Assembly: GCA_951406725.2 (NCBI GenBank) | Contig: OX597832.1 | Span: forward strand, 25,358,001 to 25,422,000 | Reading direction: 5' to 3' | DNA length: 64,000 bases | DNA from: Octopus vulgaris | Lineage: Eukaryota | Shown here: positions 36,297 to 44,511 of the stretch, one piece after another | How positions within the stretch are numbered: position 1 is the stretch's first letter | How the letters are laid out: the number at the start of each line of letters is the position of its first letter | The notes under the pieces: model-generated | Databases searched by the model: none | The model's input: the letters and a program-made list of their open reading frames with translations, nothing else | Told to the model about the DNA's origin: nothing | Position numbers and translations under genes: made by a program

Positions 36297-36385
36297 ATAA
36301 TTTGGTACGATCGTTTCGTACTACATCATTTTATTAAATAAGTATTACAACAGATTTAAGATGCTGAGACTCATCAGCCAATTAT
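36297..36385 (-). ncRNA. Type I hammerhead ribozyme, canonical core, palindromic stem III
   Basis: Minus strand: ataattgg CUGAUGA G-u...(long stem II)...a-C GAAA CGAUCG UA ccaaattat. Stem I pairs, stem III ACGAUCGU is self-complementary, cleavage triplet GUA. Confidence 0.75.
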
Positions 36386-39300
36386 AGAGGTTTTTCAAAT
36401 CAAGTGGCAACATTATAGAGAAGGTAGATATATAGACAAAGATGTGGATTTAAATTTTAAGAACATATGAGGTAGTGGAGTCCCTCCACTGACTGACTAA
36501 GATTTGGTTGTTCCACCCCGAAAGGGTGAAAGGCAAATTCGACTACAGCAGAATTTGAACTTAGTGCGTAAAGACGGACGAAATGCCTTAAACATTTCGT
36601 CTGGCGTGCTAACGATTCTGCCAGTTCGCCGCCATAGTAAAAACAACAACAACAACAACAACGACAACAACGACGACGACAACAACAACAACAACAACAA
36701 CAACAATAATAATAATAATATTGATAATAATGATAATAAATATATAAATGAAGCAAATCCCTCTTTTCAACAAAATCAAATCGTGTTGGTCGTAGTGATG
36801 ATGACGGTGGTGGCGGTGGCAGCGGTGGTGGAGGTGGTGGTGGTGGTGTTGGTTGGTGGCGGTTAGCGGTGGTGTTGGTTGGTGGTAGCAGAAGTGGAGG
36901 TTGTCGCGGTGGCAGTTGGAGATGGTGGAGGTGGTTGGTGGTTGTGGCGGTAGTGGAGGTGATTGTGGTAGCGGTTGGTGGCGGTGGTCGTGGTCGGGTT
37001 TTTTCCTGGTGGTCGTGGTTCTGGTGGTAATGATGATGGTGCTAAATACCATCTAGAAGAGATAAGCCCTGTTGATTTGGTAACAAGGAAGCTTCTGAAT
37101 GGTTTTCGGAGTAAATTTGTCAAAGATTTACAGAAATAATCTGTTAAGAAGCTCATAAACTTGACAACATATGGACAGCAATGGTGTGTGTGTGTGTGTG
37201 TGTGTGTGTGTGTGCATTGGTGTGCTTATAGATATATTGGTTTTATATATATATATATATATATATATATATATATAGGTTGTGTTTATATCAATATTGC
37301 TATGTTTATATACGCTGGAGTGCTTACACACTCACACACACACATACACAAACACGCACACACATAAGCATATATATATATATATATATATATATATATA
37401 TATACATATATTTATATATATATATATACATATATTATATATATATATATATATATATATATATATATATATATATATATATATATATATATATACTATA
37501 TATATATATATATATATATATATATATATATATATATATATATATTGCGTGTTTATCTACTTTGTATTGATGTTTCGTTGTTAATGGTGGTTTGTTGTTG
37601 TTGTTGTTGTTGTTGTTGTTTGTGGTGGTGGTGGACTTTGTGCTTGTGTTTTGGTGAGGTTTTCTTCTTCCTGTTGATTGCAACGAAGATATTTTTTAGA
37701 GAAGTCTCGACAGAATTCTTACCAAATCGCAATAAATATGGTGGCCATGCATTAAGGGTGTTAATTTTCATATTCGGTAATGATAATGATGGTGATGGTG
37801 CTCTCTCTCTCTCTCTTCACAAATCTCTCTTTCTCTCTTAGTCAATCTCTCTCACTTCAATCTCCCTCTTTCTATCCCTCTTTCAGCGCAGTATTTCTCT
37901 CTTTCCGTCCTCCTCTTCTCCCTCTCTCAAACCAACCAATGTCTCATTCTCTTTCTTCACTCTTCGCTTCAGCCTCTTTTTGTCTCTCTGTCTCCGTTCA
38001 ATTTCTCTCACTCAAATCTCCCACCCCTTCCGTTCGTCTCTCTCTTTCTCTCCAATATATTTGTCTCTCTTTCTCTCTTCTTCATCCCCTCTCTCTCTCT
38101 CCCTCTCCCTCTCCAGTCTGTCTTTCTTTCCTTTAACTCCCACCCTCTTTTTCCCAGTATCTATATGTCTCTCTCTTTCTCTCCACTTTACCTATCTCTT
38201 TCTGTCCGTCGCCTCTCTCTCTCCCTCCCTTTCTCTCTCTCCTTCTCATTGTCTTAACTCTCTCTCCGTCTTTCCTCTTGACTTCCAATACACCACTACT
38301 CTTCCCTCTTCCCTTTTCCCTCTTCCTCTTTCCTTCCTCCCCCTCCCCCCTCTCTCCTTTCTAATATCGTTCGTCATCGATGTTTCAGACATTATGCTAA
38401 TCGCTGGTAAAACCAATTTCCAGACATTCCTTCCATTCTTCACCGTCTTCCAATTTTTAGTTACAGGAAGGAACTCTTCTTTGCGGCGGAGGTAATTTAT
38501 TTACGTATTGACTGGGGCTTGACTGGAGAGCGAATGTGGTGGTGGTGGTGGTGGTTGTTGTTGTTGGTGGTGGAGGTGGTGGTGGAGTGAGAGTGAGAGT
38601 TGAGTGAGGGAAGGATTGTAAGTGCGATAGAGTGGAGCCGGAGTTGAGTTGAGGTGGAAACAATCACAGGGTCGAAGGAAGAAAGAAAGAAAGAAAGAAA
38701 GGGAGGGAGTGGGGGAAACAGAAAGGAAGAAACGAAGGAAGGGAAGAGAGAAAGAAAGAAAGAGACAGAAAGAAATGAACGAAGAAAGAAATGAAGAAAA
38801 GAAACAAGCAAAGAAATAAAGAAAGAAAGAAGGAAAGGAAAGAAAGGAAGAAAGAAACAAGGATGGAGAAAGGAGGGTGGGGTAAAAAGAAGGTAGGGAA
38901 GAAGAAAGCAAAATAAATAAATAAATAAATAAATGAGAAAGAAAAGGAAGCAAGGAAGGAAAGAAGGAACGTAGGAAAGAAGAGCGAAAAGAAAGAAAGG
39001 CAGGAAGGAAGGAAGGGAGGAAGGAAGAAAGGAAGAAAAGAAGAAAGGGAGAAAGGGAGAAAGAGAGACAGGGAGAAGGGGAGAAAGAGAGAGAGAGCAA
39101 ACGATGTTAGAAAAGATTACGAGGAGATTCTAAATAATTGCAATCAGGAATTGTAAACGAAGTTAAAATTGGAATTAAGAACCACAACAACAACAACAAC
39201 AACAACAACAACAACAACAATAACAACAACAAAAACAGTGACAACAATATCGGCAACGGCAACAATGAGAGTAGCCTTACGGTAATTAAAAGGACCACAA

Positions 39301-39559
39301 GCACGTTAACAACATGAATGAGAATAGTGAGGAATAAACACAAGAACAACAACAACAACAATTATAAATAACAACAATAATAACAACAACAACAGCAGCA
39401 ATGAGAGCGATGCACTGCGACAGCAAGAGAAATTATTAAGCGACAATAACAACGTCAACAACAACGATTTTTCAGTGGATAATTAAAAAATAAAGACCGA
39501 AAAGTTAAACAGGCCAAAAACAACAACAACTACGACAGCGATGACGATTGAATAATAAT

Positions 39560-40285
39560 AGCCATCATCATCATCATCATCGTCATCATCATCGTCGTCG
39601 TCGTCGTTGCAATCATTGTTGGCCATCGTCGTCGTCGTCGTCGTCATCATAGTTATCATCATCATCGTCATCATCACCATCATCGCCATCATCATTGTCA
39701 TAGTCATCATTATCAACACCAGCATCATCATTATCATAATCACCATCGTCATCATCATCATCGTCTTCATCATCAACACCACCATCATCATTATCATCAT
39801 CATCGTCGTCGTCGTTATCATTATCAGAGTCACCGTCATCACATTCATCATCATCATCCTCATCGTCATCATAGACGTAACTGTCGACATGATCAACGTC
39901 ATCATAGTCGTTGTCGTCGTTGTCATCATCATCAGCATCACCACCACCACCACCACCACCACCACTACCGTAATCATCATCATAATCGGTGATATAATAA
40001 TAATCATCATCATCATCATCATCATCATCGTCACCATCACCATCGACAACAGATTTGTCATGATATAATAATAGTGGTGATGGTGATGGTAGTGATGATG
40101 ATGATGATGATGATGATGACGATCATGGTGGTTATGGTGGTGGTGATGATGATAGGATGCTGATGACGATGATTACGATGATGGCGATGATGACGACGAT
40201 GATAATTTCGATTATGACGACGACGGCGGGGACGATGATTGCGATGATGACGATGACGACGACCACAACGACGATGATGATGATT
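39560..40285. repeat. Degenerate (CAT)n block followed by complementary (GAT)n block
   Basis: Polarity switches at ~40060. Confidence 0.9.
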
Positions 40286-43059: not shown

Positions 43060-43340
43060 GGCAAGCAGGTAACAACTGATGAAGAGGAAGAAACGGTGTG
43101 GAATCGATAAAGATTAAAGATGATCTTGGCTATCAAGTGTACAATACTTACAGATGAAGAAATTAAGAATAACATTCTACACAAGTGTAAAATGGAAGTC
43201 AACTTTGAACAAATATCGCAACTATCCCCAGGAAAATATGTGTCGTCTGTATATAAACAAGCAGACGACATCTTTGTCACCTGCTTTGCCACCAAGGCTG
43301 CGGCAAAGTGTTCGACGGCCATATTGTCAAAATGCTAAAT
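43060..43340 (+). pseudogene. Possible pogo/Tigger-like transposase C-terminal remnant
   Basis: KDDLGYQV / ILTDEEIKNNILH across a frameshift resembles the acidic 'LTDEEI' tail of pogo-family transposases; no DDE domain seen. Confidence 0.3.
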
Positions 43341-44416
43341 AAACAATTCACGTTCTTCATAATAATTTAAATTTTATATTGTGCAGTAGTGTAAACATTA
43401 AATTATAAACAGCAAATAGTGTGTGTGTGTACATACATACATACATACATACATACATACATACATACATACATACATACATACATACATACATACAAAT
43501 ATACATACATAGATACGTGTTTTTAGTATCGTCTCCTAAATGTTTTACGTTCTTATCCCAGTTTGTATTTTTTTACATTTACACACATATATATATATAT
43601 ATATATATATATATATATATAGAGAGAGAGAGAGAGAGAGAGAGAGAGAGAGAGACGTATGTATATATACATATATATCTGGCGGGTTAGTATCTACATA
43701 CATACTTACACACATACATACTTACATATACACACATACAAACATACATACATACATACATACATACATACATACATACATACATACATACATACATACA
43801 TACATACATACATATATACATACATAAATACATACATAAATGCGTACATATTGTAAAGTGTAAATGCTAGTCAAGGGCTGAGATTCTTGGGATTGTTGCT
43901 TACCAAAATTTGCAACGTGGCATATAAGAAGCACGAAACTCTCAGCTTCGAAGTAACTTTTATAGCCATTCGTCCGAATATATAGTTGCATATATATATA
44001 TATATATATATATATATACATATAAATATATACATACACACATGCATACATACATACATACATACATACATACATACATACATACATACATACATACATA
44101 CATACATACATACTTATATATATATAGGTATGTACATATATGTATGTATATATGCATATGTTTTATTTATTATTTTGTTATTATATATATACATATATAT
44201 TATATATATATGTAGTTGGAATTTTAAAAATGAAACAAAAGACGAAGACATGTGTATGAACAGCAAACAGGTGTATTAGTTTAACGCTCGGGAAGGTGAG
44301 AATATATATACCCTATATATATATATATATATATATATATATATATATATATATATATATATATATATATATATATATATATATATAACCAAGAAAATAG
44401 TAACAAGAATGGATCA

Positions 44417-44511
44417 GTAATTTAGTACAATTGTTTCATACTAAGAACATTTTTATTTAAAGCTGCAAATATTACAGCAAATATAATGTCTAGTATTCAT
44501 CAGCCAATCAC
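44417..44511 (-). ncRNA. Type I hammerhead ribozyme, canonical core, palindromic stem III
   Basis: Minus strand: gtgattgg CUGAUGA AUACUAGacau...auguuCUUAGUAU GAAA CAAUUG UA ctaaattac. Stems I and II pair, stem III ACAAUUGU is palindromic, triplet GUA. Confidence 0.75.

Follow-up and report, generated by a model that had tools for sequence, protein, structure and literature searches.

Type I hammerhead ribozymes with an intact core and a palindromic helix III have been described in the pseudo-long terminal repeats (pseudo-LTRs, or pLTRs) of metazoan Penelope-like elements (PLEs), where they are reported to occur mostly as solitary copies of truncated elements, with some pairs on opposite strands (PMC4209133). 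The palindrome implies cleavage as a dimer, and for PLE hammerheads of this kind low-rate cutting in dimeric form has been reported (PMC4209133; review PMC6765202). The descriptor of Cervera and de la Pena (2014) limits stem II to 3-7 bp and loop 2 to 3-10 nt and places GAAA and UH 2 nt apart (PMC4209133), although helix II reaches 6-8 bp in several of the PLE families covered there, so that an initial annotation of the DNA studied here, which called stem II of PLE hammerheads usually very short, is only partly right on this point. Here, a 64,000-nucleotide stretch of the Octopus vulgaris genome was analysed (NCBI GenBank assembly GCA_951406725.2, contig OX597832.1, positions 25,358,001 to 25,422,000 of the forward strand; hereafter “the window”, with position 1 as its first letter). 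It holds three sequences, H1, H2 and H3, that share the type I order, the intact core, the palindromic helix III and the mostly solitary, truncated condition of the metazoan pLTR hammerheads, including one opposite-strand pair. They differ from the min-HHR class in the length of stem II, 49-59 nt, and in the GAAA-UH interval of 6 nt, which places them outside the 2014 descriptor. The interpretation developed below, to which we assign a probability of about 0.72, is that the fragments carrying H1-H3 are remnants of the 3' pseudo-LTRs of PLEs.

Architecture of the three hammerhead sequences

The three sequences and their parts are as follows.

36297..36385, minus strand: H1, putative type I hammerhead, core CUGAUGA at 36377-36371, palindrome CGAUCG; a decayed copy
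36370-36318, minus strand: stem II domain of H1, 53 nt
36317-36314, minus strand: GAAA of H1; cleavage base 36306, predicted cut 36306/36305
44417..44511, minus strand: H2, putative type I hammerhead, core at 44503-44497, palindrome CAAUUG; the best-preserved copy
44496-44438, minus strand: stem II domain of H2, 59 nt, one long irregular hairpin
44426, minus strand: cleavage base of H2, predicted cut 44426/44425
34006..34089, plus strand: H3, putative type I hammerhead, core CUGACGA at 34014-34020, G-U palindrome CGUGCG; a decayed copy
within H3, plus strand: stem II domain, 49 nt; cleavage base 34081, predicted cut 34081/34082

H1 and H2 are the two motifs that the initial annotation had reported, and both were recovered at the same coordinates, with the same stem II lengths, the same two palindromes in stem III, the same change in the first pair of stem II (G-C in H1, A-U in H2) and the same predicted cut sites. 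H3 is a third motif that had been overlooked. All three carry the core CUGANGA, GAAA and UH in type I order. In stem I, 4 bp are followed by an A bulged out of the 3' strand and then by a further 3-4 pairs (four in H1); the bulged A is the same in H3 as in H1 and H2, and no base is bulged after A9. The conserved bulge in stem I and the missing bulge after A9 distinguish H1-H3 from the PLE pLTR hammerheads as presented in the available part of PMC4209133. The bulged A is a candidate partner for a tertiary contact between stem I and stem II. Judged from their sequence and pairing, H1-H3 are hammerhead-ribozyme sequences with an unusually long stem II.

Evidence for structural constraint came from the pattern of substitutions. 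Over 14 named pairs in three copies, 41 of the 42 stem cells are paired, and both sides have changed in 9 of the 14 pairs; sliding the pairing as a control left 28-44% of cells paired. In the outer part of stem I past the bulge, which was left out of the rules of the motif scan, pairing is found in 11 of 12 cells, with three both-side changes. H1 and H2 share a homologous stem II domain (identity in 37 of 60 columns, a score reached in 0 of 1000 shuffles; blastn E 1e-8). Together, these data support the earlier proposal of a structurally constrained type I hammerhead with an extended stem II. No homology was detected between stem II of H3 and that of H1 or H2 (412 and 797 of 1000 shuffles were as good), and it is therefore likely that at least two families share one architecture, with each copy carrying its own palindrome.

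The copies differ in how well stem II folds. Stem II of H2 folds better than its shuffles (z -3.27), and that of an inverted, truncated partner of H3 gave z -4.16 and keeps a 10-bp basal helix, whereas stem II of H1 (z -0.48) and of H3 (z +0.71) folds no better than shuffled sequence. Folding of the whole motif gave z-scores of merely -1.95 and -1.55. A short (UA)n run, matching the microsatellite that such elements target, is also present in stem II of the H3 family, in its 3' part (33953-33975 and 34049-34057).

Controls for chance occurrence were made by scanning both strands of the window for type I hammerheads, using rules that were fixed after the motif had been seen. Exactly three matches were returned, H1, H2 and H3, compared with a mean of 0.025 per window, none of them palindromic, in 200 block-wise dinucleotide shuffles. 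Public metagenome and viral contigs yielded 142 matches to the core pattern (117 metagenome, 25 viral loci), among which 2 had a 4-bp stem I, 14 a palindromic loop and none both, compared with three of three in the window. At least 120 further viral loci gave 123 matches; five had a 4-bp stem I, and three, all one sequence, had stem II as well. This viral sequence lies inside a 1245-codon frame and was rejected as a chance match.

The window has no Rfam match at gathering score, and at E<=10 over 33500-45000 no hammerhead appeared among the 150 of 202 matches listed. A narrow search aligned H1 over the whole of RF00163 Hammerhead_1 at 19.5 bits (E 0.012), below the gathering score of 34 because 49 nt stand where the model has 10, and H2 had no Rfam hammerhead match at E<=10. 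A sequence-only model built from the four window copies found no fifth copy. One H2-like stretch (41579-41643, a weak blastn match) was discarded, having no core.

Repeat families, fragment ends and affiliation

The hammerheads lie in short fragments whose boundaries and neighbours are listed here.

36278..36305, minus strand: 3' tail of H1, 28 nt, sharing bases with the 3' strand of stem I and ending at (TA)n/(TATG)n
36386..36511, minus strand: upstream part of the H1 repeat family, covered by contigs of all four sequencing runs described below
36512..36645, minus strand: dispersed repeat abutting the H1 fragment, which we take to be like a short interspersed nuclear element (SINE); unrelated to the H1 family
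44388..44613, minus strand: complete H2 fragment of about 225 nt, including a tail of 38 nt
33888-34002, minus strand: inverted, 5'-truncated partner of H3, from stem II to the tail, core absent
34082..34135, plus strand: tail of H3, 54 nt, 78% complementary to the tail of the partner

Evidence that H1 is part of a larger family came from contigs of four public runs, which were placed at >=80% likeness on 36272-36510 (239 nt), around H1 only. This region collected 716, 604 and 244 contigs from runs of three related organisms, A, B and C; the fourth run, whose RNA origin is a guess, added 47, which is no proof of transcription. Summed depth reached about 4e5, compared with 40-75 for the single X1 pieces listed, depth not being the same as copy number. 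H1 likely belongs to a high-copy repeat with thousands of copies; membership of H2 in this family rests on its homology to H1. No run is listed as an RNA source of the H3 stretch. Loose contig ends behind 36504 (nine contigs in run X1, one in X9) indicate that the H1 family extends further upstream, and hence that, by sequence, H1 is 5'-truncated where the SINE-like repeat begins. This repeat has other matches in the window at 27425, 7398, 27241, 27057, 27699, 6729 and 46285.

The relatives of H1 also indicate what H1 has lost. Many carry one additional nucleotide behind 36368 (6, 8, 6 and 5 contigs), which gives a 5-bp basal helix in stem II, and five additional nucleotides behind 36338 (10, 5, 3 and 1 contigs, with variants and loose ends besides), which give an 8-bp apical helix. 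Since these bases lengthen stem II, H1 is a decayed copy of a better-folding family, and the earlier description of the motifs as canonical holds for the core and not for the rest. By eye, two U-A pairs of the relatives' apical helix are replaced in H2, one by C-G and the other by U-G. No variant is listed in the palindrome of H1, where depth peaks. The relatives' tails are longer than that of H1 and resemble that of H2 by eye, and in run X6 they continue into an AT-rich end; loose ends at the H1 tail fall before 36291 and 36298.

These data also bear on a frame ending in EQPNLS upstream of H1, which had been proposed as the end of a PLE open reading frame (ORF). The proposal was not supported: the 194-codon frame consists mostly of microsatellite and of the SINE-like repeat, with at least six other copies in the window, and merely its last 18 codons or so lie within the hammerhead family. 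A 40-aa query ending there returned none of five candidates at E<=10, and its score against 81 PLE proteins did not exceed 31 (BLOSUM62, local).

The H2 fragment lies between (TA)n tracts at 44314-44387 and 44614-44658. The partner of H3 is joined to it at the 5' end of H3, with the tails pointing outward, and the two are identical in 89 of 124 columns (72%). The distance from the cleavage base to (TA)n is 28 nt in H1 and 38 nt in H2. H1, H2 and the H3 partner end at microsatellites, and the tail of H3 itself lies about 150 nt from one. The distance of 20-30 nt to an AT tract that had been noted earlier was reproduced (about 20 and 30 nt from the motif ends), but such proximity is weak evidence alone, since a microsatellite begins within 45 nt of 16% of the non-microsatellite positions of the window. 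The 80 nt that separate the H3 tail from a (TG)n tract (34136-34215, plus strand) are unassigned sequence and end, by eye, in a small hairpin.

Additional evidence for a PLE origin came from comparison with published accounts of these elements. Coleoid cephalopods are reported to have Penelope among their abundant repeat families (PMC8967140), and the traits described for PLEs include 5' truncation, an inverted 5'-truncated copy, a tail of 30-40 bp and (TA)n targeting (Craig et al. 2021, PMC8557442). The window shows 5' truncation, hammerheads close to the 3' end and short tails, together with an inverted 5'-truncated copy at H3 only (one of three). The short tails ending in (TA)n, the 5' truncation and the inverted pair fit with PLE ends. 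Other PLE sequence is present as well. A fragment at 62018-62881 (minus strand) comprises the end of a reverse transcriptase (RT), a helix-turn-helix and a GIY-YIG region and has 81 homologues (best E 1e-87), which carry PF00078/PF26215/PF01541; its 455-aa frame has no direct match in Pfam. At 15924-15987 (minus strand), a short-stem hammerhead is about 90% identical by eye to the motif of Hydra-1_oBim; it is preceded by AT/AC-rich repeats and followed by (CA)n, and its sequence identifies it as the decayed end of another PLE family. The RT/GIY-YIG fragment and this hammerhead thus place PLE ends in the window.

While these data are consistent with a PLE origin, a number of results weigh against it. 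No RT or GIY-YIG ORF adjoins H1, H2 or H3; the PLE fragment of the window lies about 17 kb from H2 and has no link to H1-H3; and the copies are truncated, with the upstream body of the H1 family unread. Nine short motifs had no match in the available part of the published Naiad/Chlamys/Hydra consensus file, in which line wraps could hide matches. Compared directly, neither the tails of H1 and H2 (257 of 1000 shuffles as good) nor their upstream segments (579 of 1000) show significant likeness. The covariation comes from three sequences, on a structure drawn from those same sequences, and RNAalifold on the two-sequence alignment of the H1 and H2 stem II gave no consensus (0 pairs). The hammerhead is not the minimum-energy fold of any of the three monomers, and forcing a dimer into the double hammerhead costs 15 kcal/mol for H1 and 17 kcal/mol for H3 relative to the free dimer.

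An alternative in which PLE enzymes move a non-autonomous, retrozyme-like unit, derived from a PLE end and without an ORF of its own, is possible but distinctly less probable than the PLE reading; the window would then hold solo monomers, and circular RNA would be produced from tandems elsewhere. The absence of an ORF next to any copy and the high copy number of the H1 family agree with it. Solo monomers are reported to be common among retrozymes, which have been argued to derive from PLE pLTRs (bioRxiv 10.64898/2026.07.22.740005), and retrozyme hammerheads likewise have a short palindromic helix III (PMC7229834). RF00163 and the animal non-LTR retrozymes have the core in common with H1-H3, as well as a stem III of 2 bp closed by a palindromic tetraloop (PMC7229834). 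However, non-LTR retrozymes are described as tandem units of 150-1000 nt (PMC7229834; bioRxiv 10.64898/2026.07.22.740005), and none was seen in the window, where no direct repeat of the unit lies near any copy. Within the 239 nt around H1 no joint goes back, a result that a unit longer than about 240 nt would escape. Moreover, the loose 3' ends of H1 relatives in X6 run into an AT-rich end rather than into upstream sequence, and the inverted, tail-out pair at H3 is a signature of PLE insertion. The earlier suggestion of a PLE or retrozyme-like element is therefore upheld by the PLE-type context, while no short retrozyme-like tandem unit was seen.

It is improbable that the host keeps H1-H3 as working ribozymes under selection, for example in introns or untranslated regions. 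All three cores are intact, and the H3 stretch is present not only in DNA runs of organism A but also in those of B (word share 0.52) and C (0.33). However, an intact core is what the motif scan selects for, H1 is without the 1 and 5 nt of stem II that its relatives possess, drift has left H3 and its partner only 72% identical, and the active-form fold is not predicted for H1 or H3. A chance grouping of short motifs in AT-rich, low-complexity DNA can be practically dismissed. The lack of an Rfam match at gathering score and the modest whole-motif z-scores would allow it, but it is refuted by the shuffle and contig-collection controls, and the pairing pattern, the alignment of H1 to Rfam and the existence of the repeat family likewise speak against it.

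Several other features of the window were recorded. A dispersed repeat ending at (TA)n occurs at 61007-61206, 10505-10704 and 44182-44294; the copy at 61132 has a hammerhead-like core with a 10-nt spacer, and the tail of this repeat shares the AT tract of H2. A frame with a zf-RVT domain (E 1.5e-8) at 51895-52710, minus strand, is the remnant of a non-LTR retrotransposon. No tRNA gene was found in the window.

Predicted cleavage as dimers

A stem III like that of H1-H3, in which two pairs enclose a palindromic tetraloop, is too weak when the molecule is alone, and the cut after GUA is predicted only for a pair of molecules. In the unconstrained dimer of H2, stem II is kept within each molecule, and the palindromes and the stem I strands pair between molecules. 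At -42.0 kcal/mol, an enforced double hammerhead of H2 lies within 0.4 kcal/mol of the free dimer (-42.4) and 8.4 below two separate monomers (-33.6). H2 is accordingly predicted to be still able to fold as a homodimer. The self-duplexes of the palindromes have energies of -10.0, -6.4 and -8.8 kcal/mol, and those of mixed pairs are -1.9, -5.0 and +0.2. Because mixed palindromes pair less well, H1 and H2 would be ill matched, although they share a strand at a distance of 8.1 kb.

These predictions suggest a mechanism for an active element, in which a couple of transcripts, or of units within a partial tandem, would pair through the self-complementary stem III and exchange stem I strands to give a double hammerhead. 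Cleavage would then occur about 30-55 nt from the 3' end of the element, trimming the transcripts or separating them, and reverse transcription into (TA)n would produce many truncated 3' ends. The element's own protein may assist cleavage, as described for Poseidon PAc, where cleavage needed the protein but was not needed for insertion in vitro (PMC11167929). Under this model, the solitary genomic copies H1-H3 are likely to be inert fossils, and selection most likely acted while the element was mobile rather than on the loci themselves.

Relation to known PLE ends, and implications

Precedent for a long stem II in a PLE hammerhead comes from spike mosses, where PLE-X1_sMoe and PLE-X1_sTam have a long stem II with a loop 2 of about 35 and 29 nt, marked as non-canonical (Craig et al. 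2021, File S2). These elements differ from the octopus copies in being endonuclease-less plant elements that target 28S rDNA, in having no 6-nt palindromic stem III and in their sequence, which is unrelated by eye. Hammerheads of the Hydra clade, including Hydra-1_oBim from Octopus bimaculoides, resemble H1-H3 in lying near the 3' end of an element with a preference for (TA)n; they differ in having a stem II of 3-7 bp with a 3-10-nt loop and belong to another sequence family (Craig et al. 2021, File S2).

The Naiads offer a different parallel. They are described as having no canonical hammerheads, and eight are flagged with a second half of the core 35-50 nt away; like the fragments described here, they are associated with (TA)n targets, 30-40-bp tails and inverted copies, and in cephalopods they survive as remnants (PMC8557442). 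In the 3' ends labelled “HHR_half_core”, CUGANGA and GAAA are far apart, as in H1-H3. The spacers of Naiad-3_Nbra, Naiad_Smim and Naiad_Esco are 50, 44 and 45 nt by hand count, with names assigned from table order, and in the first two the base of the spacer is paired. By eye, stems I and III were not found around these three half cores in the sequence available for them, and none of the seven available Naiad 3' ends that were compared resembles H1-H3 in sequence. Naiad_Obim/Ovul was rejected as the source of H1-H3, as the halves of its core stand in reverse order in the available record and no resemblance was seen by eye.

A separate repeat in the window is reminiscent of this reversed arrangement. 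Three copies ending at (TA)n lie at 8200-8404, 16170-16376 and 57294-57472 (minus strand), and in two of them GAAAC/GAACC stands shortly before GGGGCAGCUGAUGA, like the reversed half core of Naiad_Obim/Ovul. This repeat is possibly a permuted hammerhead-like, or otherwise structured, Naiad end.

A bolder and rather doubtful extension of the PLE interpretation is that H1-H3 are complete hammerheads of Naiad-type or other supposedly hammerhead-less PLEs, hidden from view by a stem II of 45-60 nt. The half cores would then form one long-stem class across animals, and the stem III palindrome of each subfamily would be a code for self-recognition, restricting pairing and cutting to transcripts of one kind. 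The link to Naiads is a lead drawn by analogy from architecture. A literature search that covered few subscription papers found no account of the long-stem-II architecture in cephalopods, and Dfam or Repbase may annotate the family; the accessible text of PMC13725137 and PMC10886601 contains nothing on the families of H1-H3.

The significance of H1-H3 depends on which PLE they came from. Craig et al. (2021) concluded that Naiads do well in the absence of canonical hammerheads, possibly for the reason that hammerheads are mere parasites of PLEs (PMC8557442). If the long-stem-II hammerheads are Naiad ends, then Naiads kept the ribozyme and this conclusion weakens; if the family is an ordinary Neptune or Poseidon end, the architecture is a modest structural variant. 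H2 is a ready natural substrate on which palindrome-specific dimer cleavage could be examined. The architecture misses the 2014 descriptor and stays below the score that Rfam requires; even so, 64 kb hold three examples of it, and one of its families, if not more, is high-copy. Since descriptors and Rfam models limit the length of stem II, counts of hammerheads in cephalopods may be much too low.

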